A DNA stretch of 64,000 nucleotides from a virus, in IMG/VR virus record IMGVR_UViG_3300045988_159685; one strand, written 5' to 3'. The translations under genes were made by a program, and so were the position numbers. Every line of letters begins with the position of its first letter. Position 1 is the first letter of the stretch. Below the pieces are notes generated by a model. That model saw only the letters and a program-made list of their open reading frames with translations. It searched no databases and was not told the DNA's origin. Positions 2,849 to 63,823 of this stretch are shown in pieces.

Positions 2849-3565
2849 TTATCTAATGCCTCTGCTGTCGATTTCATGATTGATGAATTTCTGCAAATCA
2901 TCATATGTCATAGCGGCAATAGTATCATCGAGACCATACTCATCGTCACATGTTGACACTGGGTAAATCTTGTTTGCCTCGCAGATCATCTGATCAACAT
3001 TGCAATAATCGTCGCCATACTTTGTAGGATTGTCAACCGCAGTTCTATAAACCTCTACAATATCATAGTCGCTATTTGACACATGCTCCAGGGTGTCATT
3101 GTCAAACTTGGAAAGCCATGTAAAGCTGTTATTAGCTGTATGATATCTAACAATATCGCCGAACTCTGCGCCCTTAAATACTGTAGACCTCTTGCCGTTT
3201 CTATGAACAAGCATATCACCTGTTTTAAGGGAGTCGATTGTTATATCGTCGCCGTTAGCCTCGGCTGTAGCTCTGTCGTAAACAACTGTGCCGTACTCCA
3301 GCATCTTAAGTGGATTAAAAACAAGGTCGCCAATCTTATTGCTTGCAACGCCTATAGCACGATAAACCTTAACAATTGTCAGTCCATCTGCTCTCTTGTT
3401 TGTCATATCTGAATTGTAGTTTACGCCGAGTCTTGAGAATGAATTAAACTCAGTATGGAAGCGAAGCACATCTTCTCTAGCTGTGCCCTTCATAACTGTT
3501 GCCATCTTACCGTTTGCACATATAACGAGGTCGCCTGTCTTAAGATTAGAAATTGTAAATGTCAT
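2849..3565 (-). CDS. tandem-repeat protein (two ~115-aa repeats, each starting LKTGD(L/M)V..NGK), function unknown
   Basis: RBS AAGGAGA lies 7 nt before ATG 3565, so the ORF-track start 3649 is rejected. Internal duplication: ISNLKTGDLVICANGKMATVMKG..RFHTEFNSFSRL..IVKVYR versus IDSLKTGDMLVHRNGKRSTVFKG..RYHTANNSFTWL..IVEVYR. Confidence 0.65.
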   Translation of the reverse strand: MTFTISNLKTGDLVICANGKMATVMKGTAREDVLRFHTEFNSFSRLGVNYNSDMTNKRADGLTIVKVYRAIGVASNKIGDLVFNPLKMLEYGTVVYDRATAEANGDDITIDSLKTGDMLVHRNGKRSTVFKGAEFGDIVRYHTANNSFTWLSKFDNDTLEHVSNSDYDIVEVYRTAVDNPTKYGDDYCNVDQMICEANKIYPVSTCDDEYGLDDTIAAMTYDDLQKFINHEIDSRGIR

Positions 3566-3689
3566 AAAAATATCTCCTTTTAAATGTTTTAATATTAGTG
3601 TCATTTGAATTGATATGTAGCGCTTTTTATTCTGGTGGACTACGACCATGAATAATCATGTTTATCACCCCCTCCGTTCGTCGTTAGAC

Positions 3690-5009
3690 TTATTTACATA
3701 TCGCAACAGAAATTTCACTTTCTGGTTTGAAAGTTTCACAATCTGTCTCGTCGTTTGCTTCTCCCGGATACATTGCGTCGAGGAGTATCATCATAAAATC
3801 ATCACTAAGATTTGTGCAATATGTCATATCATAAATTGACAAATTCATTATATAGTCATTTATTTTTTCTATATTTTCATAAAACGCCCAAGGCATTTCC
3901 ATTGAATCCTCTTCGCGATAACTTATTAGATCGCCTTTATCATCAACCAGTTTATACTGTTCTTGTAAAGGATAATATAGAGCTGTATCTTCATCAAGGC
4001 CATATATTGTGCCGTCTTTATCAATCACATATTCATCCAGTGATTCAGTTGGCTTACTATCTGGCTCATTAAAGTTCTTTAAATAAACCTTGCTGTTTGG
4101 CACGCAAAGTTTCTTGTGAAAAATGCTACTATAAAGATCTAAGCCTAGCTGCGGTTCTTCGTCATAGAAATCGCTGACTGAATTTTTTGCTTTGCCGCCG
4201 CCATAATAATCCTCAATTTTAAACTGTCCATCTTTGTCATCGCTTTTTTGTTTTTTAATGTCATTACTGGCACTATAAAAATCATAGCCGTAATATCGCC
4301 CATAAAGGCCTGAATAATCATACTTGATTTTAACCTTTTCAATGTATTCATATCTTGGCGTTTCAGTATTGATGAGCACCATTGCACGCTTGATATTATT
4401 CTCAACATCTTCAAGGTTAATATATTCGTGCTGGGTATGAGGTGAATAGTACCCACTCGACAGATTAACGGCTGCAACCTTTAAATGCGGCGCAACGTGG
4501 CTTATATCACTACAACTACCCCATGCACTTTTGAAACCAACATCTGGATTTGTAATAAATTTTTCAAATTCATCATTATCACAATCGTAAAACACGGCGT
4601 CGTTTCCACTTTTTCTGTCAAACTCGATAATATAATTGAGTTTTTCTGGTACATATGAGGATTTGCAAAATTTTCTGGCTCCAACGCAACCAATTTCTTC
4701 ATCCTCGGTGAAGATTACTGAGCAATGAACGTCTTTGACAATTTGTAATATCATATAGATACCACAACGGTCATCACCTCCGATACCCTGTGGTGACATT
4801 ATATACTTGCCGTCTTCGGAAACGCACACAATCGTACAGTTATCATGATGTACGGTATCCATATGTGCCATTAGTAATACTGGATGCGTACCCTCTGCAT
4901 ATATGTAGCCGTCTTCATTTACAGGCGAATAACCTAAATTTTGAAGTTCTACAAAAAGCCTTTCTTTAAGCTTATCCTGTGGTAGTTTGCAAATCTCAAT
5001 AATATTCAT
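3690..5009 (-). CDS. M20 (peptidase T-like) dinuclear metallopeptidase domain fused to a ~220-aa C-terminal region of unknown function
   Basis: Motifs MAHMDTV, GIGGDDRCG, FTEDEEIGCVGA and SSGYYSPHTQHE resemble the PepT/M20 metal ligand blocks (H-D-E-E/D-H). RBS AGAGGTGG. Confidence 0.6.
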   Translation of the reverse strand: MNIIEICKLPQDKLKERLFVELQNLGYSPVNEDGYIYAEGTHPVLLMAHMDTVHHDNCTIVCVSEDGKYIMSPQGIGGDDRCGIYMILQIVKDVHCSVIFTEDEEIGCVGARKFCKSSYVPEKLNYIIEFDRKSGNDAVFYDCDNDEFEKFITNPDVGFKSAWGSCSDISHVAPHLKVAAVNLSSGYYSPHTQHEYINLEDVENNIKRAMVLINTETPRYEYIEKVKIKYDYSGLYGRYYGYDFYSASNDIKKQKSDDKDGQFKIEDYYGGGKAKNSVSDFYDEEPQLGLDLYSSIFHKKLCVPNSKVYLKNFNEPDSKPTESLDEYVIDKDGTIYGLDEDTALYYPLQEQYKLVDDKGDLISYREEDSMEMPWAFYENIEKINDYIMNLSIYDMTYCTNLSDDFMMILLDAMYPGEANDETDCETFKPESEISVAICK

Positions 5010-5010
5010 A

Positions 5011-6897
5011 TTAGTCCACCTCTTTTATTCCATCAATATCAACTATACATACATACTTGTCGTCAACATTAAGTGCACATAACGTATGTTCAGCACCATC
5101 GTACATCCACTTAAAAGTTTTTATTATTGTTCCAAAAATATTAAGATCATAGTAGCATTCACAAGCTTTTCTATCAAAAAGCTGTAATGTTGGAAACATC
5201 TCTTTTGCACTAAGAAAACGTATAAAAATTAAACCCTTTTTTGAAACAAAAACTTTTTTGCCAGCAATAAGTTTCTTTTCACGGCAATCTTTACACAATC
5301 CGTCAACTAACGAATTGTTACCATAAAACGCTTGATGACAACAATTACATTTATGAACACGATGCGGGGCATATAAAACATCATGTTCTTCGTCGTAACC
5401 CGCATAATTATCTACTTCTCTTACATAAAAATACTCATTGGTAATATCGTCAATAAAAAATGCCTCCTGTGTGCTCCAATCTTCCCCCTCATCACAATCG
5501 TCGCATATCATATTTCCTGAATTGCAAAGTTCATCGCCGCATTTCAAACACCAAGAACTATGCCCAATTGTAATATCATCGCCATCCCATATACTATCAA
5601 AAGCGTACAGATTAGTATTGTATTGCTCATAATTATAGTCTGGATAATGCAATGAGTTTTCCGCCGCGCAGATATGACTATGATCCACTTTTCTATACTC
5701 GTTTTTTATACCAAGACAATTGGATATTGCTTGCGAAACAAAATATGTATAAGTTGCGTCGCGCTGAGGTAACTTATAATTTGGATAGTTACGAGATTGC
5801 AATAGAAGCCCGTTCTGAAAACAATAAATCTGTCTTGTCAGCTTGTTGTTTTCCCATGGCTCGCCTACATATTGGTTTGACAAAGTATAAAAAATCATGC
5901 TCGAAGAATCCATTATATAAGACTGCGTTCCTGCATGATAACAACCGTGGTGCCCTACATGGTGACATGAATCCCATCCCTCACCATATGACATTTTTAG
6001 GAAGTCGCATGGATTTACTGAGAGTATTGCCACCTGCGTGTTTTTTAATGGGTTTACGGCATCGGCAATCACCGCAAAATCGTGATTGTAGTTTGGGTAT
6101 TTATCAAGTCCCATATCTACAAAAATCTTGTTAAGTTCACGAGAATACTTGGCCCCAACGGTCATATGTACGCCAACCGCCTCATACCTTTCTTTTATCT
6201 CCTTAGTAACAAACTGCTGTGGTTGGGTACACTGCACACCATCCCACATTATGTCTAATTGTTTGTCTGTCAGATACATACCGTTTTCACGGCAATTATG
6301 GTAAAATTCTTTACAAGCTTTAAGAAAGTCGTTACCGTCCTTTACACGAGTTTCTTCTACCTCACCTTTAATGCAAAGATTTTTTTCATCCCAATTAGGA
6401 TGTTTCCTCAATATAGAAAGCAGTTCTGCTTTGTTTGTAAAGAATTCATTAACGATATCGACAATAACGTCTTTATTATACTCGTAGCTTGCATCGTCAA
6501 GAATACTGCACATATTATTTACAATATCCATGCGTTCACAAGAACCCTGTGGTTCTTTTTCATGAGGCTTCATTGGAGCAAAAAACGTAAGCTCATCAGC
6601 TTCAGGTGAAATATAATGATATAAAGCCGATTCACCATTATTTTTTTCATATGTAAATGTTGCCGTAGAATCAATAACGTGTTTGGCTATTTTACATACC
6701 TTAACTTTTCTGCCGTTCTTACGCAGAACGATAGTGTCACCAATCTCAAAGAGGTTTTCACTAAGTTCACTGCGGTTATAGATTTCTCCCGACATCATAT
6801 AAACTTCGTCGCCTGCTATCTTCCTTATTCTGCCGATATACTCTCCACAACGAACAAGCTCAAATCTTCTTAATGTTTTAAATTTTTCTTCCGTCAT
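5011..6897 (-). CDS. large Cys/His-motif protein, paralog B, with Cys-rich (CxxC-rich) C-terminal extension
   Basis: 628-aa ORF with RBS AAGGAG. Conserved blocks shared with 837-2423. The C-terminus carries CLKCGDELCNSGNMICDDCDEG and CNCCHQ..CKDC clusters. Confidence 0.7.
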   Translation of the reverse strand: MTEEKFKTLRRFELVRCGEYIGRIRKIAGDEVYMMSGEIYNRSELSENLFEIGDTIVLRKNGRKVKVCKIAKHVIDSTATFTYEKNNGESALYHYISPEADELTFFAPMKPHEKEPQGSCERMDIVNNMCSILDDASYEYNKDVIVDIVNEFFTNKAELLSILRKHPNWDEKNLCIKGEVEETRVKDGNDFLKACKEFYHNCRENGMYLTDKQLDIMWDGVQCTQPQQFVTKEIKERYEAVGVHMTVGAKYSRELNKIFVDMGLDKYPNYNHDFAVIADAVNPLKNTQVAILSVNPCDFLKMSYGEGWDSCHHVGHHGCYHAGTQSYIMDSSSMIFYTLSNQYVGEPWENNKLTRQIYCFQNGLLLQSRNYPNYKLPQRDATYTYFVSQAISNCLGIKNEYRKVDHSHICAAENSLHYPDYNYEQYNTNLYAFDSIWDGDDITIGHSSWCLKCGDELCNSGNMICDDCDEGEDWSTQEAFFIDDITNEYFYVREVDNYAGYDEEHDVLYAPHRVHKCNCCHQAFYGNNSLVDGLCKDCREKKLIAGKKVFVSKKGLIFIRFLSAKEMFPTLQLFDRKACECYYDLNIFGTIIKTFKWMYDGAEHTLCALNVDDKYVCIVDIDGIKEVD

Positions 6898-8588: not shown

Positions 8589-8912
8589 CTACACCCATAA
8601 TTGATTATCCAACTCTTCCAAATCTTCTTCAGTATATTCTCTAACGTTTTTTCCACATCTTTCAAACATATATTCTGCAAAGGCAAAAGGCAATTCTCGA
8701 CCACAATTAGTTTCAAGCCTATAAATATTATGATTGCAGAAGTAAAAATCCTTTATAAAGAATTCTTTTCCGCAATATGGAATCATGCTTTTGATGAAAT
8801 GAATATATCCGAAAATCAATGCGTTACCACAATACTGTGGAGACGGAGTTTCAAACTCGCACCGCATATCCTTAAGAGATCTTATTCGCACTTTGTCGCC
8901 TATCTGATACAT
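8589..8912 (-). CDS. small paralog family member
   Basis: MYQIGDKVRIRSLKDMRCEF..YCGKE..EYMFERCG; RBS AGAGGTGA. The 5' end lies in a 45-bp perfect repeat. Confidence 0.7.
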   Translation of the reverse strand: MYQIGDKVRIRSLKDMRCEFETPSPQYCGNALIFGYIHFIKSMIPYCGKEFFIKDFYFCNHNIYRLETNCGRELPFAFAEYMFERCGKNVREYTEEDLEELDNQLWV

Positions 8913-8932
8913 TAAAAATCACCTCTTTTCAA
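8888..8932. repeat. 45-bp perfect direct repeat, copy 1
   Basis: gcactttgtcgcctatctgatacattaaaaatcacctcttttcaa is identical at 9158-9202 (period 270 nt). It spans the first codons, RBS and upstream stop of adjacent paralogs. Confidence 0.9.
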
Positions 8933-9182
8933 ACATATATTCCTCAAAAGTAGATAAAAGAGGGGCTCTATTTATGGTTTCAAGTAGATAACATTTACGC
9001 CCATCCACATATCTTAGTTGACGAATATGATATTGCTGCCCACAAAAAATAACCATGTACTTTAAAAAACCTGTCCCTTTTCTTATTAATAAATTCCCAA
9101 CATAGTACGGCGGCATCGTTTCATATTCACACAGCATATCTTTTAAACGCCTCATTTGCACTTTGTCGCCTATCTGATACAT
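8919..9182 (-). CDS. small paralog family member
   Basis: MYQIGDKVQMRRLKDMLCEY..FCGQQ..EYMFEKR; same RBS as 8589-8912. Confidence 0.7.
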   Translation of the reverse strand: MYQIGDKVQMRRLKDMLCEYETMPPYYVGNLLIRKGTGFLKYMVIFCGQQYHIRQLRYVDGRKCYLLETINRAPLLSTFEEYMFEKR

Positions 9183-9202
9183 TAAAAATCACCTCTTTTC
9201 AA
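9158..9202. repeat. 45-bp perfect direct repeat, copy 2
   Basis: Identical to 8888-8932. Confidence 0.9.
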
Positions 9203-9772
9203 TAGGTCATTTACGATGTCCTTAAAGAGTTTGCGTAATTTCGGGTTATTTTCTATAACCTCATGTTTTGAGGTTACATTTGCCCTCTTCATACGATTAC
9301 TCCATACGATGCCATATCTTGCAGACATTTCACCATAAATACGCCGCAATGTGGCATTATACCCCAGAGAGTTATCGTCACGCCTTTGCGCAAGAGGAGC
9401 CGCCACCATTGAACAAGTGACATCGATTAGTTCTACCGGTGTAAGATCTAATTTTCTTACATTCATATTATCCATAATGTGGTATGTAAATGTTGTTCTT
9501 TCAACAATTCTGAATTTTAAAAAGTCAAGAAAATCTTTGCCATCACAATGTCTTGTTTCGTATTTGCGACTAAAGCCCCATACACGGCAAAACTCATTAA
9601 TAGTTTCATTGATAAGTTGTTCTGTTTTTCTACGTGCTGTCGTTTCTTTCCCAAATGTTTTTATTAAAAAATGGTTATATACATTAGTAAGCAAAACGCT
9701 TTTCCATTCATCCGCGCCGAGCACTCTCCCAAGAATTTGTTCGTCGCGTGTAGCCCTTTCAATCTTTTTCAT
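9182..9772 (-). CDS. hypothetical protein (196 aa)
   Basis: ORF with RBS-like GAAGGGA. The stop overlaps the start of the downstream paralog. Confidence 0.55.
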   Translation of the reverse strand: MKKIERATRDEQILGRVLGADEWKSVLLTNVYNHFLIKTFGKETTARRKTEQLINETINEFCRVWGFSRKYETRHCDGKDFLDFLKFRIVERTTFTYHIMDNMNVRKLDLTPVELIDVTCSMVAAPLAQRRDDNSLGYNATLRRIYGEMSARYGIVWSNRMKRANVTSKHEVIENNPKLRKLFKDIVNDLLKRGDF

Positions 9773-9847: not shown

Positions 9848-9922
9848 TGGTGACTCGTGCAGGAATTGCACCTACGATTCCATCCTGAGAAGATAGCGTC
9901 TTAACTACTTGACCAACGAGCC
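9848..9922 (-). tRNA. tRNA-Glu-like, anticodon CUC (copy A), non-canonical T-loop
   Basis: Hand fold of GGCTCGT..ACGAGTC-A-CCA. Anticodon stem CTATC/GATGG, loop TTCTCAG, T-stem GTAGG/CCTGC. The T-loop is TGCAATT rather than TTCRANN. The body resembles Bacillus-type tRNA-Glu (GG.C.GTTGGTCAAG.GGTTAAGAC). Confidence 0.55.
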
Positions 9923-10005
9923 ATAAGCCCATAAGGGCTTTTTAATACTATGGGATTATTGGAGGTGAAGAACCATAGTATGTATCAGGAATTACCCTCG
10001 CGCTG

Positions 10006-10081
10006 TGGCTGGAGTGGCTGGACTCGAACCAGCGGAATGACGGAGTCAAAGTCCGTTGCCTTACCTCTTGGCTACACTCCA
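10006..10081 (-). tRNA. tRNA-Gln (anticodon UUG)
   Basis: TGGAGTG..CACTCCA-G-CCA. Anticodon stem ACGGA/TCCGT, loop CTTTGAC, T-arm GCTGG-TTCGAGT-CCAGC. The layout parallels E. coli tRNA-Gln. Confidence 0.8.
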
Positions 10082-10107
10082 ATATAGCCCGTAAAAGCGG
10101 GCATTTT

Positions 10108-10380
10108 TTACAACTTTTTACCATCAAGGGTTTCGAACATATATTCCGTCCAAGCCCAACACGTGATTTCATTCAACGTATATTCGCCTGTATCTCCATA
10201 TCCTCTATCCTGAATCTCCGTTATACTGTGAATTTCTCCACAATATATATACATTGATGGGTTAAAACTTAAATATGAATTTTTGGGGCGTAATGGTTCA
10301 TCTTCTTGATTGTTGTAACTATATTCGCAAAGCAGGTCTTTTTTACGCCTTATTCTGACTTCATTGCCGATTTTTAGCAT
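10108..10380 (-). CDS. small paralog family member
   Basis: ATG 10380 is preceded by GGAGGTG. MLKIGNEVRIRRKKDLLCEY..YCGEI..EYMFETLDGKKL. Confidence 0.7.
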   Translation of the reverse strand: MLKIGNEVRIRRKKDLLCEYSYNNQEDEPLRPKNSYLSFNPSMYIYCGEIHSITEIQDRGYGDTGEYTLNEITCWAWTEYMFETLDGKKL

Positions 10381-10912
10381 TATGCACACCTCCAATTTTG
10401 TATGGAATCTGAGTTACTCCAAGTTTTTTTGCGGCAATGTATCTGGCATAGCCGTCTTTCAAAATTTTGTTGCCCTTAGCATCAAGCTTTATAGTTATGG
10501 GGTTATCGAAAATTCCATAATATTTATAGAAACAGATAGCCCTGTCCACCTTTTCTTTCTTTGGCGGATGATTCATAAAGTCTCTGGGTATGTACACTTT
10601 ATCTACATCTATGAGCTTTTTGAAGTTGCTCATAAAAGCGGGGCGACTAATGTTTACAACTATCGCATTTATAGTTGCTACGCCATCACGCTTGGAGATT
10701 TCGTAATCTCTTCGACCTGTAATCAAAGAATATGTATCACGGGAATTTCGCCGCACAATTACAACGAGGTTGTCTTTTGTGCCGAGTTTTTCAGTGTCGA
10801 TACTCTTCTTGTGTACACTATCTGTCAGCATGATGTTCCTAACTGGTATAGGAATCGCCTGCGCCGCCATTCTTGACCTGAAATTTTTTATATTGTTAAA
10901 ACAGTACGCCAT
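10361..10912 (-). CDS. ParB/sulfiredoxin-like domain protein (two ParB-N-like halves)
   Basis: VVIVRRNSRDTYSLITGRRDYEISKRDGVATINAIVV resembles the ParB N-terminal pattern (IxVR..x..Y.(I/L)I.G.RR..A....G...I.A.V). A second half reads KILKDGYARYIAAKKLGVTQIPYKI. RBS AGGAGG. Confidence 0.5.
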   Translation of the reverse strand: MAYCFNNIKNFRSRMAAQAIPIPVRNIMLTDSVHKKSIDTEKLGTKDNLVVIVRRNSRDTYSLITGRRDYEISKRDGVATINAIVVNISRPAFMSNFKKLIDVDKVYIPRDFMNHPPKKEKVDRAICFYKYYGIFDNPITIKLDAKGNKILKDGYARYIAAKKLGVTQIPYKIGGVHNAKNRQ

Positions 10913-10941
10913 AATTTCTACCTCCTATTTTTTATAATGGC

Positions 10942-11017
10942 TGGTGTGCCATTCGGGATTTGAACCCGAGACCTTTCGATTAAAAGTCGAATGCTCTACC
11001 AATTGAGCTAATGGCAC
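10942..11017 (-). tRNA. tRNA-Lys (anticodon UUU), copy 1
   Basis: GTGCCAT..ATGGCAC-A-CCA. Anticodon stem TTCGA/TCGAA, loop CTTTTAA, T-arm TCGGG-TTCAAAT-CCCGA. Confidence 0.85.
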
Positions 11018-11149
11018 ATAGACCGCCGTGGCGGTCAGCATTGTAACCCATGGTTACACAGATTACAATTTAATTACAAAGTGGTGACATAATTCAATCG
11101 ACCGTGTTACTTAAATGTAACTCGCAAGCTTTTTAGCTTGCATTTGAAT

Positions 11150-11190
11150 AAAAAAAATAACGACGGATTAACCAAAGTTGACCCGTCGTT
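11150..11190 (-). terminator. rho-independent terminator (minus strand)
   Basis: The minus strand reads AACGACGG-16 nt loop-CCGTCGTT, then A and T8. Confidence 0.5.
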
Positions 11191-11291
11191 AAATATATAA
11201 AATGGACACTTTTCAGCCTTGTGGATAACCTACGGTCAAGTTATGACGCACCTTAACCAAACTCAAGGGTTTTGTAAAATCTTAATTGTTG

Positions 11292-11370
11292 TGCTTTAAG
11301 ATTTAAGCTTTAGACGATTATAAGCTTTGAACTTTCGTAATTAAATTTTCAGCTTTATGCCTTAAGCTTT
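11292..11370. repeat. five iterated (A/T)AGCTTT(A/G) motifs
   Basis: GCTTT cores start at 11293, 11307, 11324, 11352 and 11366. A related hairpin gcaagct-ttt-agcttgc lies at 11124-11140. Confidence 0.5.
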
Positions 11371-11377
11371 ATCTTAT

Positions 11378-11419
11378 TACTCGTACAGGAATTGAACCTG
11401 TAATGCAACCAGTCGAGCA
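11378..11419 (-). pseudogene. tRNA-like remnant (acceptor + T-arm minihelix, no anticodon arm, no CCA)
   Basis: The minus strand reads TGCTCGA-CTGGTTGCATT-ACAGG-TTCAATT-CCTGT-ACGAGTA. It resembles the 5' and 3' ends of the Glu-like tRNAs. Confidence 0.35.
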
Positions 11420-11581
11420 ACAAAACATTCCCACAAAAAAGGAATATCATATATCTTCGTATAGACTACGATAGCTATTACTTATATTTGAGGCCAGATT
11501 TTTATTATTTTACTTTGTGAATATAGCCTAAAACACAAAGGTCATAAAATTAAAGGTTTTCAAAAAGCACCCATTTTTTGC

Positions 11582-12223
11582 TTAGTACGAAATTTCGATT
11601 TCGGTTATAGCGTTCGATACGCTGATAGCCGAGTCAAAATCAATCTTAAACTTGTCTATACGATCGACAAGGTCAGAAATGATTTCGGCAGTGTCAAAAC
11701 CCTCGATAATTTCAAAAGTGTTCGCCTTTATGAAATTGGTTTTCGCCTCCTCTATTTCCTTTGTAACAGCTTTACCGTCTTTTGAACCAAACATTCCAAG
11801 TACATACTCATCGGCACGCCCCTGTAATGTTTCGCCGTTCTCATAATTACATCTGTCCTGTGCAGCTTTAAGCTGTTTAGACATATGCTTCAAAAGATCT
11901 TCCTCAAATTCAATGCCGTGATTCTTATACTCTATAGCCTCGGCAATAGTCAGTTTCATACCCTGTATTGTGACTTCGGTCTCGGCATTTGAAAGCGTAA
12001 CGGCACGCTTAATTGCCTTACGCCTTTTTATAAGGTCGGCTATTTTGTCATAGCTCGCCTTGAAGCCATTCTTAGCTTCTTCAATAGAGACGCCATTTAT
12101 CTTTGTGTTGCTATGTTTGTTCTCAACCACAAATTTTGCATCTTTGATAAGGGCGGGTATCCTCTTATCGAGAATCTTAAGCTCACAAAGTGCCTGATGA
12201 ATCGTCATTTTTTCGTTAGTCAT
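11582..12223 (-). CDS. hypothetical protein (213 aa, helical/coiled-coil-like)
   Basis: ORF with RBS AAGGAG. Confidence 0.6.
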   Translation of the reverse strand: MTNEKMTIHQALCELKILDKRIPALIKDAKFVVENKHSNTKINGVSIEEAKNGFKASYDKIADLIKRRKAIKRAVTLSNAETEVTIQGMKLTIAEAIEYKNHGIEFEEDLLKHMSKQLKAAQDRCNYENGETLQGRADEYVLGMFGSKDGKAVTKEIEEAKTNFIKANTFEIIEGFDTAEIISDLVDRIDKFKIDFDSAISVSNAITEIEISY

Positions 12224-12277
12224 TTCAAAAACTCCTTTGAATTTTAAAATTTACAGACCTGATTATGCCTGTATTGA

Positions 12278-12337
12278 TGGTGGCTCACACAGGATTTACA
12301 CCTGTACTCTCACTGGGGATAAGAGTCTATTTGAGCC
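12278..12337 (-). pseudogene. 60-nt truncated tRNA-like element (no D-arm), CCA-ended
   Basis: The minus strand reads GGCTCAA-ATAG-ACTCT-(11-nt loop)-AGAGT-ACAGG-TGTAAAT-CCTGT-GTGAGCC-A-CCA. Confidence 0.35.
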
Positions 12338-12390
12338 ATAGCGATGCAAAGCATCGCACTCAGAAAAAGAAGGGAATGCCCAAAACGGGC

Positions 12391-12466
12391 TGGTGACTCA
12401 CGCAGGATTTGAACCATGCAATTCCGCCCTGAGAAGGCGGCGTCTTAACCGTTTGACCAGTGAGCC
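12391..12466 (-). tRNA. tRNA-Glu-like, anticodon CUC (copy B), bulged T-stem
   Basis: GGCTCAC..GTGAGTC-A-CCA. Anticodon stem CCGCC/GGCGG, loop TTCTCAG. The T-arm GCA(T)GG-TTCAAAT-CCTGC needs one bulged nucleotide. Confidence 0.55.
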
Positions 12467-12490
12467 ATAAGGCGGAGAACTCCGCCTATA

Positions 12491-13435
12491 TTACTTTTCT
12501 TTAAAGGTTGGCGAACAGCTCTCAAAGAATTCTTTTACGTTGACATTGTATTTCTCAAGAATCGCAACGATAACTTTTTGTACCTTGTCCCATTCGTCAT
12601 CTTTGATATACTGAATATACGGTGTCTTGCGATTGCCACGCTTTTTGAGGTCAATCCCGTAGCGATAACTAAGCTGCTTATATAGCATACTGAAAGCCAC
12701 GCCGAAACTGATATGCAAAGTCGAAGCAAACTTACGCATAACTCTGTTGAACATTTTGCGGTCTGAAATATGTAAGACCTCGGCTGTTAAAAGCTTGTTT
12801 GACGTTTCAATTCTGTCGATATGACGCCGCTGAAACGCCGTGTAAGCCTGGGCGGCTGTCGCAAATTCCATGATATCACCCGTGGCAAAAGCCTTGCCGA
12901 TTGCCGCTTGGAGCTTTTCTTCGTCGTCGATATCTTGCGTGAGAAGTTCGGGCTTTTCCTCGGCGGTGTGTTCGACAATGTTTAGGAGCTGTGTCCTGAC
13001 CTCTTGGGCTATCTTGCTATCACGAAGAAGCATGCCTATTCTGAGGATGGCACGCTTTGAGAAACACTTGATGCCTCGGTTTGGGATTTCAAGGTGGGTA
13101 TTATCGTCGATTTGGATAACAAGTTTGCCGTTTTGTTGCTCAAAATTCTTAAAGGTACAACTTGTACCTTTAAGAATTTCTTTAAAGATTGTAGGCGTTT
13201 TAGTTGCAACGCCATCACCCTCAATCTCAGTGCGGTTTCGCTGACAACAACGCTTTATAGTATCAATATCAACCTCATAATAATCCGCCACCTGCCTAAT
13301 AGTCATACAGTTCATCTCAGGTATCAAAAGCAGCTTCTTAACCTTATCAAGAACCTCAGTTCTGGCAATAAGCTCGTTTCTGAGGTCATGGTTGTCTACC
13401 ATGCTTTCGCTCGTGATGATTTTACTTTCTGGCAT
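12491..13435 (-). CDS. HTH DNA-binding regulator (antirepressor/Rha-like layout)
   Basis: MTIRQVADYYEVDIDTIKRCCQRN looks like a helix-turn-helix. The central KRAILRIGMLLRDSKIAQEVRTQLLN segment resembles those of Firmicutes phage antirepressor-type proteins. RBS GAGGAGGTG. Palindromic operator-like repeats lie upstream. Confidence 0.5.
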   Translation of the reverse strand: MPESKIITSESMVDNHDLRNELIARTEVLDKVKKLLLIPEMNCMTIRQVADYYEVDIDTIKRCCQRNRTEIEGDGVATKTPTIFKEILKGTSCTFKNFEQQNGKLVIQIDDNTHLEIPNRGIKCFSKRAILRIGMLLRDSKIAQEVRTQLLNIVEHTAEEKPELLTQDIDDEEKLQAAIGKAFATGDIMEFATAAQAYTAFQRRHIDRIETSNKLLTAEVLHISDRKMFNRVMRKFASTLHISFGVAFSMLYKQLSYRYGIDLKKRGNRKTPYIQYIKDDEWDKVQKVIVAILEKYNVNVKEFFESCSPTFKEK

Positions 13436-13496
13436 AATTTCACCTCCTCTTGTAAAACAAATTGAACATCTTGCTTAGTTAGTAACCTAAATTCTT

Positions 13497-13629
13497 AACG
13501 GAACAAGTTGTTCCTTTAAGAAATATCCATCTTTAATGGGATAAGTTGTTCCTTTAAAAGCACTTGAATAGAGTTTAGACTTTTTTGCTATAATGCCATT
13601 TGAACTAACGGAACATCTTGTTCCTTTAG
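13497..13629 (-). promoter_or_regulatory. three operator-like repeats, TAACGGAACA(A/T)(G/C)TTGTTCCTTTA
   Basis: Palindrome GGAACAAGTTGTTCC at 13500-13514 and GGAACATCTTGTTCC at 13610-13624. A half-degenerate copy AAGTTGTTCCTTTAA lies at 13543-13557 and a partial copy at 13463-13476. Confidence 0.55.
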
Positions 13630-13660
13630 TAATTTTTAAAGATATTAAACTTACCTCTGC

Positions 13661-13834
13661 CTAACATTTAAGACTTATAATAACCGCAATCACCGTTATA
13701 ATCAGATTAAGCAGTGCGCCGATCCACAGTGGTGATACCACCCAAAGCCAACTCCAGCATATAACTTTAGTCAGTTTCAGTATGATAAATACGATAGTAA
13801 GCAGTCCGCAAAAACCAATTCCGCCGCTCTTCAT
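13661..13834 (-). CDS. small membrane protein (57 aa, two hydrophobic segments)
   Basis: Below the ORF-track cutoff. Hand translation gives MKSGGIGFCGLLTIVFIILKLTKVICWSWLWVVSPLWIGALLNLIITVIAVIISLKC. Strong RBS AAGGGAGGG. Confidence 0.5.
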   Translation of the reverse strand: MKSGGIGFCGLLTIVFIILKLTKVICWSWLWVVSPLWIGALLNLIITVIAVIISLKC

Positions 13835-13836
13835 AA

Positions 13837-14070
13837 TTATTCTCCCTCCCTTACAATATGAAATTTATCCACGCCGTAAATAACGCCAAGTGAGCGCCCA
13901 TTGTCAAAATTGCAATGAATCGTACCAGCGTCATCGACATGATCAACCGTTCCAAGCGTATTCGGCTCAACTGGGTATGGATCATCAACCATTTTCTCAA
14001 GGCATATTCTTGTACCCTCGGGGAAAACTCTTTTGAGCCAAGATATCCTCTTGTCATTGTATAAACTCAT
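13837..14070 (-). CDS. DUF4314-like protein
   Basis: FPEGTRICLEKMVDDPYPVEPNTLGTVDHVDDAGTIHCNFDNGRSLGVIYGVDKF matches my recollection of the DUF4314 signature (DDPY..P.GT.GTV..VDD.G.IH..WDNGRSL). ATGA start/stop overlap with the upstream gene. Confidence 0.55.
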   Translation of the reverse strand: MSLYNDKRISWLKRVFPEGTRICLEKMVDDPYPVEPNTLGTVDHVDDAGTIHCNFDNGRSLGVIYGVDKFHIVREGE

Positions 14071-14408
14071 ACCTTGCCTCTTTCAAACTCAATAACACCG
14101 CCATCGGCATCAACGACAACTGGGCGAATTGATAGGATATTTCTTGTGAATAAAAACGCACAGGCTAATGGCACGGCAATAACCGCACTCTCGGGCATAG
14201 CTATAGCCATAACGCCCATAGCAAAGCCGAGAACTTTCTGCATAATCCACAACACTTTGGCTGCTTTTCTTTCAAGTCTGCGGCTTTTATAGCTTTCTAT
14301 GCGCTTTTTAAGCTCTCTTTCTTCTTTGTCACGTTCTTCTGCGTGTTTCATAGATCTGATTAACTTTGTCAGGTCGTATGTATTATGTACGTTTTCAAAA
14401 GCGTCCAT
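14067..14408 (-). CDS. membrane protein (113 aa)
   Basis: RBS GGAGGTG. Charged N-terminal helix followed by two hydrophobic segments (VLGFAMGVMAIAM.., VIAVPLACAFLF). Confidence 0.55.
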   Translation of the reverse strand: MDAFENVHNTYDLTKLIRSMKHAEERDKEERELKKRIESYKSRRLERKAAKVLWIMQKVLGFAMGVMAIAMPESAVIAVPLACAFLFTRNILSIRPVVVDADGGVIEFERGKV

Positions 14409-14481
14409 AAAAACACCTCCATTTTAAAATAATAATAATGATTTTCTGATTACGCCTGAAAATCACCATAAAATCTGGCGT

Positions 14482-14557
14482 TGGTGCGACTTATGGGGCT
14501 TGAACCCATGACCTCCGCATTAAAAGTGCGTTGCTCTACTAACTGAGCTAAAGCCGC
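14482..14557 (-). tRNA. tRNA-Lys (anticodon UUU), copy 2
   Basis: GCGGCTT..AAGTCGC-A-CCA. Anticodon loop CTTTTAA with stem ACGCA/TGCGG (one A-G mismatch). T-arm ATGGG-TTCAAGC-CCCAT. Confidence 0.75.
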
Positions 14558-14650
14558 AAGCGCAGGCATCACACTACATTCCCATATGGTGGGATAAGCA
14601 CTGTACCTGCTATGCCAATTTTCTTTTTGTGTAGCATTGGCAAACTACAC

Positions 14651-14737
14651 TGGTGCCGCTGACGAGACTTGAACTCGTAAGGATTTTACTCCGAGGGTTT
14701 TTAAGACCCTTGTGTATGCCTATTCCACCACAGCGGC
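14651..14737 (-). tRNA. tRNA-Leu (anticodon UAA), type II with long variable arm
   Basis: GCCGCTG..CAGCGGC-A-CCA. Anticodon stem AGGGT/ACCCT, loop CTTAAAA, variable arm CGGAGTAAAATCCTT, T-arm ACGAG-TTCAAGT-CTCGT. Confidence 0.85.
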
Positions 14738-14847
14738 TTGTCTTGCCCACAACCCACAGAAGGCAAGTAATGTACGGCTCATCCGTACTTCCCTACGTAT
14801 TCAGCGACTGATGCCACCGATGCGCGTCTAAGGACTGCGACGTCCTT

Positions 14848-14922
14848 TGGTGACTCGTGCAGGATTCAAACCTACGACTCCGCTCTGAGAAAGCGGTATC
14901 TTAATCACTTGACCAACGAGCC
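14848..14922 (-). tRNA. tRNA-Glu-like, anticodon CUC (copy C), T-loop TTTGAAT
   Basis: GGCTCGT..ACGAGTC-A-CCA. Anticodon stem CCGCT/AGCGG, loop TTCTCAG. T at the position-56 equivalent instead of C. Confidence 0.55.
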
Positions 14923-15220
14923 ATAAGGCGGCTTTTGACCGCCTACTGAATAAAAAGAAAGGAATTTTAAATCAATGCTAATATCTAACTTATGTAACCC
15001 TCTACACGAGGGCTGGCACAATAAGCATAATTCACCACCTCCGTTCCTACTCATACCAGCCGAGCCCAATATTTCAATATCACCTAAGCCTTGCAATAAA
15101 CCGCAGTAATAGACTTTTAGCGGGTTATGCCGTACTTAGACGCCGCAAATTATTTAACGTGGCTTGCGGTTACCACTTACTCAAATGAGCATATCAACTA
15201 CCTCTTTTCAAAAAAACTTG

Positions 15221-15838: not shown

Positions 15839-16234
15839 TTACCTGTACCTAGAAAAGTGCATTGATATACACTGGACAGCAAACTTTTCCGCCGCTGATT
15901 TACCGCCATGGCGTGGAACCTCGGCAAGTATTGACCGAGGACCCTGCTTGCCTACTTTTGGCGGATATTCTGCGGAAATATGCCTTTTTGCACACTCTTG
16001 TGCTATTTCAGAAGAATCTGGCTCAAATTTATCTTTGAACCATATTTTTGTATCGTCGTAATATGTATAAAAAATTACGACTCTATCTTTGTGTTTTTGC
16101 CCATGATAGACAAAATAAACGGGGCGTTTTACCCCGTCAATAATGAGTTGCCCTTGCCCATAAGCACCGCCCTTTAGGACGTGAAAACCATGAAATTTTA
16201 GCGGTTTTTGTGCTATATTTAGTGAAAATCTCAC
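15839..16234 (-). CDS. hypothetical protein (131 aa, GTG start)
   Basis: AGGGAGG lies 7 nt before GTG 16234. The ORF-track start 16279 has no RBS. Confidence 0.5.
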   Translation of the reverse strand: MRFSLNIAQKPLKFHGFHVLKGGAYGQGQLIIDGVKRPVYFVYHGQKHKDRVVIFYTYYDDTKIWFKDKFEPDSSEIAQECAKRHISAEYPPKVGKQGPRSILAEVPRHGGKSAAEKFAVQCISMHFSRYR

Positions 16235-16366
16235 CGTAAAACCTCCCTTTTCTGATTTTAAAGACAGATTGACCCTCAAGGGCTTTTACTAAGTGACGCC
16301 TTTTAGGTCGTTTTGAGTAAAAAGAAATTCCGCAAGGGTCAAAAAAATCCGCCTTAAAATTTGCAC

Positions 16367-16447: not shown

Positions 16448-17197
16448 CTAAGCCTTTACTGGCTCAGCTTTTGTTGCTTCTGGCTCGGCTTTTGCCGTCT
16501 TTTTAGCTGTCTTTTTGGCCGGCTTTTTGGCTGGCTCGGCTGGCTTATCAGCCTGTGAGTCTGCAAGTTTCTTATATGTTTCAGTGGCGTCATCAAGAAC
16601 CGCCTGTTTGATGGAGTTTTTGGCATAACCGAGAGCACACTCTGTCTTGCTCTCACCAAAATTCAACTCCTTAAAGCAGAAGTTAATAAACTGATATACG
16701 CTTACAGGCTTGACAGTCCAGCCCTCAGCAATAGCCTCTCTGTTGGATCTGGCGTATTTAAAGCAGTGTGCCTCTAATGTATCTATATCTGTAGACTTGC
16801 AGTTGACTTTTACACCGAGCCATGTTTTGAGGGCTTTAAGCTCATCAAAACACTCAGACTTTGAGTCTGTCATAGCCTTAATATCGTCAGCATCTCCAGA
16901 CTCCGCAGCACGGCGCTTGCAAAGTCCATAGATGGCAAGTCGTGTCTGTAGAGCTTTGAACGGTTTAAGCCAGCCCTTAAAAGTATCACTGTCGATGTCA
17001 GGTGAAAAAAGCGACTTTGAAAATGATATAGCAAAACCAAAGCCCTCAAGTACAGAGTACATTGTGCGTATAGACTTAATATTAAGCCTCTTAATGTAGC
17101 TCTTGATGTTGTCGATCTGCTCACTTGTTGTTGCTATGACCTCTACACCGTCGCCTGTTTTTGACTCCACGAGTCTGTAATTTTCCAAAATGTTCAT
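16448..17197 (-). CDS. hypothetical protein with Lys/Ala/Pro-rich histone-H1-like C-terminal tail
   Basis: ATG 17197 is preceded by GGAGGG. The C-terminus reads ADKPAEPAKKPAKKTAKKTAKAEPEATKAEPVKA. Confidence 0.6.
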   Translation of the reverse strand: MNILENYRLVESKTGDGVEVIATTSEQIDNIKSYIKRLNIKSIRTMYSVLEGFGFAISFSKSLFSPDIDSDTFKGWLKPFKALQTRLAIYGLCKRRAAESGDADDIKAMTDSKSECFDELKALKTWLGVKVNCKSTDIDTLEAHCFKYARSNREAIAEGWTVKPVSVYQFINFCFKELNFGESKTECALGYAKNSIKQAVLDDATETYKKLADSQADKPAEPAKKPAKKTAKKTAKAEPEATKAEPVKA

Positions 17198-17227
17198 AAT
17201 AGAACCCTCCAATAAAATTTAATTTTT

Positions 17228-18365: not shown

Positions 18366-18394
18366 TTGACATTTAGCCAAAAATGGTGTATAAT
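18366..18394 (+). promoter_or_regulatory. consensus sigma70/sigmaA-type promoter
   Basis: TTGACA (18366-18371), 17-nt spacer, TATAAT (18389-18394). It lies 52 nt upstream of the recombinase ATG. Confidence 0.7.
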
Positions 18395-18446: not shown

Positions 18447-19235
18447 ATGAGACATTACAAAATCAAGCACGCCCAGCAGGTATTCAGTGGTTCGACCGCC
18501 CCAAAACTTAAGTGCAACGTTATCGACATTGGCGACGCTGTAAAACCAAAGCGACCCGAAATTGAGAAGCGTCCACGCAACAATTCACCGTACACCTCAC
18601 ATGGCAAACCCAAGGCAACCCCTGGCGATCCAATTCGAGACATGGCGGATATTCAAAAGGCAAAAGAGTTCTTGCTCAACAACGGTAAGACTAGACGCAT
18701 CAGACTTCGTAACTACATGTTCTTCACCCTTGGCATTTCAACGGGACTCCGTGGTGGCGACTTAGTTAAAATCAAGATTGGCGATGTGATTACTGAGGGC
18801 GGTAGATTTAAAAGCTATATCAGCTTGTTCGAGGAAAAGACCTCTAAACACAACAATCCAAAGCTTAATTCATCATGCCGTGAAGCAATCAAGACATATC
18901 TCGACTACATCGGCGACTACTCCCTTGAAGACTATCTGTTCAAATCCGAGAAAGGCGGTTGTCTTGACCAATCACAAATCTATAGAATCATTCATTCGCT
19001 TCAAACCGACCTTGGGCTACCATACCACTTGAGCGCACATAGCCTCAGAAAGACCTTTGGCTACTGGACAATAAAGATGCACCCCGACGATTCAAGAGCT
19101 CTTGTGACACTCCAGAGAATGTTAAATCACGATTCACCCGAGACTACACTGATTTACTGCGGAATAACTCAAGACGACAAAGACGCATTCTACGATGACA
19201 TGGATACACTGTTCGATGAGGCTACAACCATATAA
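18447..19235 (+). CDS. short tyrosine recombinase (catalytic domain only, no SAM-like N-domain)
   Basis: GLRGGDLVKIKIGDV (Arg I), HSLRKTF (HxxR), LNHDSPETTLIY (H..Y). RBS AAAGGAGA. Confidence 0.8.
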   Translation: MRHYKIKHAQQVFSGSTAPKLKCNVIDIGDAVKPKRPEIEKRPRNNSPYTSHGKPKATPGDPIRDMADIQKAKEFLLNNGKTRRIRLRNYMFFTLGISTGLRGGDLVKIKIGDVITEGGRFKSYISLFEEKTSKHNNPKLNSSCREAIKTYLDYIGDYSLEDYLFKSEKGGCLDQSQIYRIIHSLQTDLGLPYHLSAHSLRKTFGYWTIKMHPDDSRALVTLQRMLNHDSPETTLIYCGITQDDKDAFYDDMDTLFDEATTI

Positions 19236-24628: not shown

Positions 24629-24704
24629 TGCGGAGTAGAGAAAAGGTATCTCGCTTGTTTCATAGGCAAGAGATTATTGGTTCGAGTCCAATCTCACGCA
24701 ACCA
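24629..24704 (+). tRNA. tRNA-Met/Ile2-like (anticodon CAU) with a bulged A in the acceptor stem
   Basis: Hand fold: TGCGGAG-TA-GAGA-AAAGGTA-TCTC-G-CTTGT-TTCATAG-GCAAG-AGATT-ATTGG-TTCGAGT-CCAAT-CTC(A)CGCA-A-CCA. All arms are canonical except the extra A on the 3' acceptor strand. Confidence 0.5.
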
Positions 24705-24774: not shown

Positions 24775-25791
24775 ATGTCAAAGGTATCAAAACTTCCGCC
24801 TGTTACGCAGGAAGAGTGGAACAAAGTAAACGACTTTAACAAATTTATATTTGAAGATTTTATAACGAACAGCACAGAGCTATCGCCTAAAACAAAAATT
24901 GCTTATGAGTCAAATTTAAAAATTTGGTTTATTTGGGTCAAAGATAATCTTAATAACAAATCTCAGATCGACATTAAACCTTTAGACTTTAAGCGTTTTC
25001 AAAACTGGATGGTCAACCGTGGTTGTTCAAGTGCAGATTGTGCAAACAAAAGAGCGGCAATTAGCTCGCTTAATAATTACATAGATGTTTACTATAGGGA
25101 CGATTATCCACAATTTCGCAATTTTATTAATAAGAGTATAGCACGACCGCCAAAGGCTTTTGTAAATGAGAAGCAACCACTGACGAAAGAGGAATTTGCA
25201 AATCTTATTTCTGTTCTCGAAAAACGTGGTGATTGGCAAAAGGTTGCCTATCTTAAATTTACATTAGATACAGGATGTCGCCGTGCTGAGAGCATACAAG
25301 TGAAAAAGGATTTTGTAAACATCAAGCCGACCATAAAACACAAAACCCATATTGACGAAAATGGTAACGAAGTAACAAAAGAGATTAAGTATTATGTTAC
25401 CCCTACTATTCGTTGTAAAGGAAAGGGTACGGTTGGTAAAGAAAGAAAGTTTAAATTCTCACAGGATACAATGGATGCATTTAAGAAGTGGATTGAAGTT
25501 AGAGGTGAAGACGATTGCCCAGACATGTTTATTTCTAAATATGCCGGAAAAGTAAAAGGCATAGCAGAGAACACGTTAAACAATTGGGCTACTCATGTAT
25601 TTACACCTATCGTCGGCAGACGCTTTCATCCGCATCTTCTAAGAGAGTCTAAGGCAACTCAGCTTGCAGTCGAAGAAGGAAAAGACATTTCTGTAATCCA
25701 AAGTCTATTAGGCCACGAGTCATCAGAAACTACACAAATTTATATAATCCGTGACGAAACCGATGACCTCGACGAGTTGTTTGAAGAGTAG
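24775..25791 (+). CDS. tyrosine recombinase/integrase (XerC/D-like, with SAM-like N-domain)
   Basis: TGCRRAESIQV (Arg I), HPHLLRES (HxxR), LGHESSETTQIY (H..Y). RBS AAAGGAGA. Confidence 0.8.
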   Translation: MSKVSKLPPVTQEEWNKVNDFNKFIFEDFITNSTELSPKTKIAYESNLKIWFIWVKDNLNNKSQIDIKPLDFKRFQNWMVNRGCSSADCANKRAAISSLNNYIDVYYRDDYPQFRNFINKSIARPPKAFVNEKQPLTKEEFANLISVLEKRGDWQKVAYLKFTLDTGCRRAESIQVKKDFVNIKPTIKHKTHIDENGNEVTKEIKYYVTPTIRCKGKGTVGKERKFKFSQDTMDAFKKWIEVRGEDDCPDMFISKYAGKVKGIAENTLNNWATHVFTPIVGRRFHPHLLRESKATQLAVEEGKDISVIQSLLGHESSETTQIYIIRDETDDLDELFEE

Positions 25792-32353: not shown

Positions 32354-32376
32354 TTATAGGGAAAGGAGATACTATA

Positions 32377-63805: not shown

Positions 63806-63823
63806 GGAATTTGCAAATACGAC

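Follow-up and report, generated by a model that had tools for sequence, protein, structure and literature searches.

Three conserved tRNA-Glu(CUC) genes in the tRNA cluster of an SPbeta-like prophage of Ruminococcus bicirculans: codon supply and a possible answer to the host's Cas13d

Introduction

What keeps three different genes for a GAG-reading tRNA in the genome of an AT-rich phage? The question is raised by a stretch of DNA of 64,000 nt, one strand of IMG/VR record IMGVR_UViG_3300045988_159685 (the window), which is an SPbeta-like prophage of the gut bacterium Ruminococcus bicirculans. Seven tRNA genes lie on its minus strand: three for tRNA-Glu(CUC), two for tRNA-Lys(UUU), one for tRNA-Gln(UUG) and one for tRNA-Leu(UAA). 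An earlier reading of the sequence, hereafter the original prediction, had called this repertoire unusual, had held that codon supply could hardly explain it and had proposed a possible countermeasure against anticodon nucleases.

Whether phage tRNAs serve codon supply or the survival of tRNA-cutting defences is an open debate. To our knowledge, the proven cases of counter-defence by phage tRNAs are few, and all of them concern coliphages facing PARIS, retrons or PrrC. Cas13 enzymes have only recently been reported to act mainly as anticodon nucleases; we know of no phage answer to this cleavage and of no phage tRNA shown to counter Cas13.

Results

Seven tRNA genes and the conservation of the Glu(CUC) copies

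ARAGORN found exactly the seven minus-strand genes of the original prediction, and the Rfam covariance model RF00005 scored all of them at 49.1-78.5 bits (gathering score, 29). The Glu genes lie at 9848-9922 (copy A), 12391-12466 (copy B) and 14848-14922 (copy C), the Lys genes at 10942-11017 (copy 1) and 14482-14557 (copy 2), the Gln gene, called by both programs, at 10006-10081, and the Leu gene, which has a long variable arm and is free of introns in the window, at 14651-14737. CCA is encoded in all seven genes. Every anticodon loop has U33 and a purine at position 37: UUCUCAG in Glu, CUUUGAC in Gln, CUUAAAA in Leu and the canonical CUUUUAA in both Lys copies, whose anticodon stems differ from each other, as had been noted.

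The Rfam-aligned structures placed the anticodon CUC in the loop UUCUCAG of all three Glu copies and bore out the T-arm deviations described earlier, namely the T-loop UGCAAUU in copy A, a one-base T-stem bulge in copy B (T-loop UUCAAAU) and the T-loop UUUGAAU in copy C. The odd T-loops have counterparts in the D-loop. In copy C, G19-C56 is replaced by A19-U56, again a Watson-Crick combination; in copy A, A18 stands with G55; copy B retains G18G19 and the canonical pairs G18-U55 and G19-C56. In Lys copy 2, A18 stands with U55. The Glu copies are 75-81% identical to each other (19-25% divergence) and share the loop, the CCA, a four-base variable loop, a G2-U71 wobble pair, A73 and the D-arm UGGUCAA....UUAAGA. 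Compensatory pairs distinguish their anticodon stems (CUAUC/GAUGG, CCGCC/GGCGG and CCGCU/AGCGG). The Firmicutes-type body of all three is also found in chromosomal tRNA-Glu(CUC) genes recovered in our scans, and we take the copies to resemble the tRNA-Glu of Bacillus subtilis.

The same seven tRNAs occurred in the same order in about 10 independent related viral contigs, and the protein-coding cassettes between them were inserted, deleted or replaced among these relatives. Between orthologs, the Glu genes diverged by 0.41% (copy A, 13 orthologs), 0.26% (copy B, 15 orthologs) and 0.85% (copy C, wholly at the unpaired position 26), figures that span 11-15 orthologs. The other tRNA genes diverged by 1.0% (Gln), 1.7% (Lys copy 1), 2.9% (Lys copy 2) and 4.8% (Leu). 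For comparison, divergence was 5.9% in intergenic DNA, 3.4-4.2% at codon positions 1 and 2 and 12.8% at position 3. The three Glu(CUC) genes are thus the most conserved sequences of the region. Double compensatory stem changes were also seen among relatives in Lys copy 1 (C4-G69 to U4-A69 in three of them) and in Leu.

Decaying or hitch-hiking duplicates without function would account for the deviant T-loops, the bulged T-stem, the lower Rfam scores of the Glu copies (49-54 bits) and the truncated tRNA relics nearby (see below). However, a divergence far below that of intergenic DNA effectively refutes this reading, as do the compensatory stem and tertiary changes and a loop and CCA that stayed identical in three copies despite their mutual divergence. 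We give it next to no chance. The strongest constraint of the region together with compensating changes in the stems and D/T-loops argues that the Glu copies are old, functional duplicates and not pseudogenes, in agreement with the original prediction.

The element and its host

The window encodes a terminase, a portal protein, a tape measure protein and an exonuclease, as expected of a tailed phage. A single-subunit RNA polymerase of the YonO type (907 aa; 19807-22530, plus strand) marks the element as SPbeta-like; it is 44% identical to SPbeta yonO and has a Pfam RdRP match. Further Pfam matches revealed virion genes of the YonB/D/G/J type. Exact copies of window proteins were present on a 365-kb human-gut metagenome contig, which, just beyond the right end of the window, runs into the housekeeping genes for L31, DnaG and RpoD. 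In NCBI and UniRef, a protein identical to this DnaG bears the name of R. bicirculans DNA primase, and we therefore assign the prophage to this host. The prophage splits a 332-aa host gene of the GGGtGRT family (PF14057), and empty sites were found in four other assemblies. With the polymerase, the Yon-type virion genes, the host junction and the empty sites, we conclude that the window is an SPbeta-like prophage of R. bicirculans. No close cultured phage was found for it. The right junction lies at the end of the window (~63500-64000; contigs L278 12013-12114 and L279 1993-2991), and integration leaves a stub of 33 aa.

The split GGGtGRT gene is reminiscent of SPbeta, which splits spsM. The polymerase, the YonB/D/G/J-like virion genes and a split host gene are common to the present element and other SPbeta-type prophages of Firmicutes. 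SPbeta isolates measure about 125-134 kb, whereas the present element measures at least 73 kb and has a gut member of the Oscillospiraceae as its host. Unlike the present prophage, the SPbeta-like relatives that we scanned carry no tRNAs in the equivalent region.

Codon demand of phage and host

The phage has 37% GC and its host 44% GC. We set the codon usage of 67 open reading frames (ORFs) of the window (18,682 codons) against that of 20 genes taken from the empty-site locus of the host (5,980 codons), a small sample in which none except L31 is truly highly expressed. TTA occurred 2.0 times per 1000 codons in the host and 18.0 times in the phage, the highest phage/host ratio of all codons. 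The corresponding figures were 5.7 and 17.9 for CAA, 39.0 and 55.6 for AAA, and 39.6 and 46.7 for GAA; the phage/host excess was 7.4x for TTA, 3.0x for CAA and 1.4x for AAA. By contrast, GAG fell from 30.1 in the host to 22.4 in the phage. For Leu(UAA), Gln(UUG) and Lys(UUU), ordinary codon compensation is thus a very good fit. Genome-wide it fails for the three Glu(CUC) genes, since GAG is rarer in the phage than in the host. The original prediction had expected an AT-rich genome to favour GAA, and GAA indeed makes up 68% of the phage Glu codons. Its two broader claims, an unusual repertoire and a set beyond codon supply, hold for the Glu part; Lys, Gln and Leu are a case of ordinary compensation.

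Three virion genes depart from the codon usage of the phage. Two of them are neighbours on the plus strand (31859-33372), a 164-aa gene at 31859-32353 and a 331-aa YonB-like structural or capsid gene (Pfam match to YonB) at 32377-33372, which together use GAG in 23/30, AAG in 28/35 and CAG in 11/11 cases and contain no TTA. The third (270 aa; 37043-37855, plus strand), by its position probably a tail protein, uses GAG in 12/16, AAG in 17/17 and CAG in 10/10 cases. Pooled, the three show host-like optimal codons: GAG 35/46 (76%; 46 per 1000), AAG 45/52, CAG 21/21, AGA 88% and no TTA. In the rest of the phage the shares of GAG, AAG and CAG are 31%, 34% and 37%. The virion GAG share also exceeds that of the host genes, both overall (43%) and in the AAG-biased subset (47%), with Fisher p values of 3e-5 and 9e-4. 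GAG-rich late genes had been named beforehand as a finding that would favour codon supply, and these three major virion genes are of that kind, but the phage as a whole remains below the host in GAG. Host-like codon use was also seen in the GAG-rich ORF 16448-17212 (17/20) and in a minus-strand gene without a family match (2849-3649; GAG 8/10, AAG 13/18), which lies in an otherwise AT-biased minus-strand arm.

These data bear on the simplest explanation, that all seven tRNAs match codon demand and have no role in defence. Leu, Gln and Lys would meet the need of the bulk genes for A-ending codons, and Glu(CUC) that of the GAG-rich capsid and tail genes with their very high expression. R. bicirculans would then have few or no tRNA-Glu(CUC) genes relative to Lys(CUU) and Gln(CUG), the three phage copies would provide dosage, and their divergence would only prevent recombination. 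The enrichment of TTA, CAA and AAA in the phage agrees with this explanation, as does a virion GAG share above that of host genes. Moreover, host genes with an extreme AAG/CAG bias (such as L31 and the GGGtGRT gene) use GAA about as often as GAG, a hint that GAG is ill-served in the host, and no Ruminococcus genome appeared in our pattern scan for tRNA-Glu(CUC), a scan that demanded U32/G38 and is silent on host Glu(CUC) genes with C32/C38. On the other hand, the low overall use of GAG in the phage speaks against pure supply, and in the virion genes ACA, ATT, GTT, GGT and AAG rise more than GAG, as the counts imply. Pure supply also leaves unexplained why C34 was chosen for Glu alone and why these three genes are the most conserved. 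We regard it as a serious contender, though well below an even chance.

The capsid genes of related gut phages are often equally GAG-rich with no tRNAs within 10 kb, which also argues against pure supply. Since such genes are common in phages without nearby tRNAs, the GAG preference of the capsid is probably set by the host. A comparison of capsid GAG preference with the anticodon of the phage tRNA-Glu gave no result, as no contig was common to the YonO-based and the capsid-based sets.

Cas13d in the host species and its spacers

Activated LshCas13a is reported to act chiefly on tRNAs whose anticodons are rich in U and to cleave them in the anticodon. Every dataset showed cleavage of Lys(UUU), Glu(UUC), Gln(UUG) and Thr(UGU), and the strongest effects are described for Lys, Gln, Glu and Leu (PMC11042736). 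RfxCas13d of Ruminococcus flavefaciens is likewise reported to cut within anticodons, with a U|U preference, and to cleave Lys(UUU) at U34-U35 and U35-U36 (bioRxiv 10.64898/2025.12.03.690598, a 2025 preprint). Cas13d is found mainly in Ruminococcus and Eubacterium (PMC5935466). With the RfxCas13d sequence, verified at full length against the PDB entry for CasRx, as the query, we recovered a 921-aa protein on 120 contigs, which NCBI names as Cas13d of R. bicirculans. It matches the NCBIfam equivalog NF038189 at 1091 bits, and both HEPN motifs are intact (IRQCVFH and YRNRIAH).

An array of 36-nt repeats with spacers of 30-31 nt lies just upstream in the chromosomal Cas13d locus. Beside the commonest Cas13d allele, the same six spacers were found in nine metagenomes, and none of the six matches the phage. 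This array (contigs L363-L371, 9485-9920) has degenerate repeats, and its identity in nine unrelated metagenomes points to a static array; no cas1 or cas2 gene is nearby, and just upstream (8762-9355) lies a tandem repeat of 113/227 nt that encodes repeated ORFs of 33 aa. Sampling the arrays beside other alleles brought the total to 28 distinct spacers, and all phage matches came from these other arrays. The two spacer-bearing alleles that we compared are 94% identical to the named Cas13d, and most loci share the same flanking gene.

Four of the 28 distinct spacers match this phage clade with 1-4 mismatches. The best protospacer (30/31; spacer in contig L379) is located at 10723-10753, inside an ORF with a ParB_N domain (10361-10912) between Lys copy 1 and Gln. 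Another, at 16027-16056 inside ORF 15839-16279, matches at 26/30 positions in the window and at 28/30 in the relative L081. The remaining two, at 16667-16696 (27/30) and 16697-16726 (26/30), abut each other within ORF 16448-17212, which suggests an acquisition hot spot in this ORF; their spacers come from two different arrays (L375 and L381). Shuffled versions of the 16027 and 16667 spacers, the two for which this was done, never came closer than seven mismatches. With two positions left free, the 16027 spacer found its only match among 2.9 million viral contigs in the clade member L081; the 16667 spacer had no exact match anywhere in the viral collection.

All four spacers are in plus-strand sense and all four protospacers lie on the minus strand in minus-strand ORFs, so that the spacers are antisense to phage mRNAs. 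This orientation suits an RNA-targeting guide, because the CRISPR RNA carries its repeat at the 5' end and the repeats have the matching orientation, which we take from their likeness to published Cas13d repeats. On the evidence of these spacers, this phage lineage is a target of Cas13d in the host species. The loops of the phage tRNAs differ with regard to the dinucleotide preferred by RfxCas13d. In the phage Glu loop UUCUCAG, none of positions 34-36 takes part in a UU, whereas UU involving these positions occurs in the Lys, Gln and Leu (33-34) loops and in Glu(UUC).

Origin of the Glu anticodon loop

We considered whether U32/G38 in the Glu loop is an escape change specific to the phage. When one genome of each bacterial species was scanned for UUCUCAG preceded by a Glu D-arm of the Firmicutes type, 88 stretches emerged. 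All were chromosomal tRNA-Glu(CUC) genes, from Lactobacillales (about 85 species) and from three Lachnoclostridium-like genomes. In this set, neither a Ruminococcus match nor a copy of the prophage was found. The Lachnoclostridium gene lies beside polC, ispG and alaS, and its 5' half resembles the phage Glu copies. Viral contigs hold further Glu(CUC) genes of the Firmicutes type, many of them host genes at the ends of prophages; the loops of these genes have C32/C38 or C32/A38. We therefore rejected the idea of a phage-specific escape change, given that the same loop is chromosomal in so many species. U32/G38 is a natural minority variant and not an invention of the phage, and may simply reflect the donor lineage.

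The UUCUCAG-type Glu(CUC) genes of Leuconostoc, Weissella, Fructobacillus and Lacticaseibacillus (contigs L098-L185, e.g. L106 4898-5070 and L099 4223-4659) lack an encoded CCA and are often tandemly duplicated. Their acceptor stem appears to end in a wobble pair, G1-U72 or U1-G72 depending on the register.

Further elements in and around the cluster

The original prediction had missed three elements, as well as the D-loop counterparts of the odd T-loops and the encoded CCA. An eighth tRNA with the anticodon CAU (24630-24700, plus strand; loop UUCAUAG) scored 48.8 bits with Rfam and received no ARAGORN call. It has a one-base bulge in the acceptor stem and no encoded CCA, and it is kept in the contigs L005 and L006. 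Some distant relatives carry a Met(CAU) gene near the capsid region. The other two elements are truncated, Glu-derived and tRNA-like. Relic 1 (12279-12342, minus strand; 50 nt downstream of Glu copy B) has no D-arm and consists of a 7-bp acceptor stem, a 7-bp stem with the loop UCCCCAG, a T-arm and ACCA; its fold has a z of -3.6 against shuffles, and its 16 orthologs diverge by 2.5% with substitutions that mostly keep the structure. Relic 2 (11383-11432, minus strand) retains only the 3' strand of the acceptor and the T-arm, without CCA; it is identical in 11 relatives, and its fold is no better than that of shuffles.

Directly 5' of each Glu gene, relic 1, Gln and Lys copy 1, we found a GC-rich hairpin of differing sequence followed by (T)TAT on the minus strand (14926-14944, 12470-12487, 10087-10102, ~9926-9940 and ~11021-11036). 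These hairpins may stabilize upstream mRNAs at the 3' ends that RNase P leaves. Two of them read as terminators on the opposite strand.

The hairpins and the relic bear on another explanation, in which the Glu-type tRNAs and the relic act as processing punctuation (RNase P/Z sites with protective hairpins), as decoys or as recombination anchors and have no role in translation. The hairpins in front of these genes, the preservation of the tRNA-like fold of relic 1 and the shuffling of genes between the tRNAs are in keeping with such a function. Any tRNA would do as punctuation, however, which leaves the choice of Glu(CUC) unexplained, and the conservation and compensation of anticodon loops, stems and tertiary pairs go far beyond the need of a processing signal. 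We consider this explanation very unlikely. A role of the tRNAs as junctions for cassette recombination was examined separately and rejected, as the breakpoints are mostly not at tRNA edges.

Among four relatives (L082, L001, L080 and L090), the tRNA-Leu(UAA) gene is split exactly between U34 and A35 by an insert of about 625 nt. In L082 the insert (4996-5620) follows a 5' exon whose last base is U, has G as its own last base and holds a 150-aa ORF with an HNH motif. The insert resembles a mobile group I intron, and its place is the classic one in tRNA-Leu. Rfam returned no group I intron match for it at E <= 0.1, a search in which the inserted ORF may break the model.

Pfam, PHROGs and PADLOC were searched for genes of RNA repair, tRNA modification or defence beside the tRNAs and gave only ParB_N, DUF4314, DUF7336, a weak antirepressor match and a weak match to PDC-M59A. 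Prophage DNA to the left of the window start (contig L275, 12613-21587) encodes a cassette of nicotinamidase, a PRPP-type transferase, NAMPT and NAD synthase, possibly for the replenishment of NAD+ against NAD-depleting defences, and also an IS605-type TnpB and a PemK/MazF toxin. The yonO region lies between two tyrosine-recombinase genes (18447-19235 and 24775-25791, plus strand). A perfect sigma-70 promoter (TTGACA-17-TATAAT; 18366-18394, plus strand) faces a good minus-strand promoter at 17819-17791 and marks a divergent control region.

A tRNA nuclease other than Cas13d might also have shaped the cluster. The isotypes Lys, Glu, Gln and Leu(UAA) form the group with xm5s2U34 or cmnm5Um34, and an enzyme of the PrrC/RloC, PARIS or Schlafen type, a toxin-antitoxin system such as MazF or VapC, or a colicin-like nuclease could recognize the modified U34 (xm5s2U) in tRNA-Glu, tRNA-Lys and tRNA-Gln, in which case a Glu tRNA with C34 would escape. 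The isotype set of the phage equals this modification group, the prophage holds outside the window the NAD salvage cassette, which resembles counter-defence, and the PemK/MazF toxin, and the Glu paralogs look diversified, with differences in the elbow and the anticodon stem. Against this, no such nuclease came to light, those named in the original prediction (PrrC, RloC, PARIS and retron types) included: PADLOC gave one weak candidate-system match among the large unknown proteins of the window (the 314-aa ORF 12491-13435) and none for the prophage PemK, our literature search found no phage-defence nuclease specific for tRNA-Glu, and the Lys loops are without escape changes. We regard such a nuclease as unlikely.

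Discussion

We favour an explanation that combines codon supply with a countermeasure against Cas13d, which in our judgement falls just short of an even chance. On this view, all seven genes encode functional tRNAs with which the phage sustains its translation in R. bicirculans, in two layers. In the first layer, which is visible in the codon statistics, Leu(UAA), Gln(UUG) and the two Lys(UUU) would decode TTA, CAA and AAA. In the second, the three old and diverged Glu(CUC) genes may provide a high dose of a Glu decoder without U34 and without UU in its anticodon. This decoder would serve the GAG-rich, highly expressed capsid and tail genes and could keep working when the host tRNA-Glu(UUC) is limiting or has fallen to an anticodon nuclease of the HEPN type. 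The foremost candidate for such an enzyme is the Cas13d of the host species, with its spacers against transcripts of the tRNA-bearing operon. If the R. bicirculans enzyme cuts UU-containing anticodons as reported for RfxCas13d, the phage tRNAs might mitigate the damage: Lys, Gln and Leu by replenishment, and Glu by a switch to an isoacceptor that offers no UU to cut. Presumably the tRNAs are co-transcribed with the early genes of the minus strand; RNase P and 3' processing would free them, and the synthetases of the host would charge them. The divergence of the copies may in addition protect the repeats from recombinational loss.

The choice of isoacceptor separates the two functions. Codon compensation predicts UUC for an AT-rich phage; avoidance of UU predicts CUC, as found, in three copies and under the strongest constraint. 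The idea of an anticodon-nuclease countermeasure, with which the original prediction began, is plausible and now has a named candidate nuclease. Cas13d is present in the host species, its spacers match the clade and the published preferences fit, but four of the seven tRNAs fit codon compensation.

Several points weigh against a part for Cas13d. U-rich anticodons read A-rich codons, so that an AT-rich phage would pick Lys, Gln and Leu with or without a nuclease; AT bias alone predicts these four of the seven genes and is a confound. The loops of these tRNAs are canonical and U-rich and should themselves be cut. Glu(CUC) cannot read GAA, the major Glu codon of the phage, and its own loop has U32-U33, a dinucleotide that the typical Clostridia Glu(CUC) loop CUCUCAC lacks. 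In the virion genes the demand for AAG and CAG rises as much as that for GAG, yet the phage has neither Lys(CUU) nor Gln(CUG). The GAG-rich capsid genes of relatives without nearby tRNAs and the small host codon sample belong here as well. The R. bicirculans Cas13d is 38% identical to RfxCas13d, and its tRNA preference is only extrapolated from RfxCas13d and LshCas13a. Finally, over-expression of Lys, Gln, Glu and Leu tRNAs in E. coli failed to relieve the growth arrest caused by Cas13a (PMC11042736).

Precedents exist for both modes of counter-defence. The tRNA-Lys of phage T5 is a non-cleavable variant that neutralizes PARIS and its Toprim nuclease AriB (PMC11464382). The present case would be similar: in T5, a phage tRNA of the targeted isotype restores translation, and the resistance resides in the anticodon stem-loop. 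There the anticodon is unchanged, and substitutions in the stem-loop protect against AriB, whose cleavage site lies between positions 40 and 41 (PMC11464382), whereas we propose for the present phage a variation on this theme, a change of isoacceptor from UUC to CUC, in three copies and with Cas13d as the candidate nuclease. The second mode is replenishment by dose: over-expressed tRNA-Tyr of SP15 or T5 evades PtuAB of retron-Eco7 in a dose-dependent manner (PMC11555353). Lys, Gln and Leu of the present phage would act in the same way, and the multiple copies of Lys and Glu could take the place of the strong promoter of that system, but isotype and nuclease differ from those of the retron case.

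The collateral cleavage reported for Cas13a and Cas13d offers a further likeness, as its preferred or most affected substrates, Lys-UUU, Glu-UUC, Gln-UUG and Leu, are the isotypes carried by the present phage. The published studies used the enzymes of Leptotrichia and R. flavefaciens on E. coli RNA. Compared with the classical codon-compensation hypothesis for phage tRNAs (PMC10264068), Leu, Gln and Lys agree and the three Glu(CUC) genes differ, as their codon is rarer in the phage. Phage tRNAs with mutated anticodon loops have been proposed to evade nucleases (PMC10264068). The Glu loop of the present phage does differ at U32/G38 from the common Clostridia loops with C32 and C38 or A38; in contrast to the proposed escape loops, however, the same variant is also chromosomal (about 85 Lactobacillales species, some Lachnoclostridium) and is not demonstrably an escape.

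The most far-reaching form of our proposal is possible but on balance doubtful: that this is the first natural phage tRNA repertoire shaped by the collateral anticodon cleavage of CRISPR-Cas13, in which UU-containing tRNAs are replenished, Glu is switched to three UU-free CUC copies and the capsid and tail genes rely on GAG, which would let virions form after Cas13d has been triggered. The present case would then combine the non-cleavable and the dose mode of counter-defence, would add a switch of isoacceptor and would be aimed at a CRISPR effector.

The locus is a natural matched system. A prevalent bacterium of the human gut has a Cas13d whose spacers target a prophage lineage resident in it, and this lineage carries the matching set of tRNAs except for the switch of one anticodon. 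The Glu(CUC) genes separate supply from the avoidance of UU, which makes the question directly testable in a natural host-phage pair. It also has a bearing on how Cas13d, widely used as a tool under the name CasRx, affects tRNA pools.

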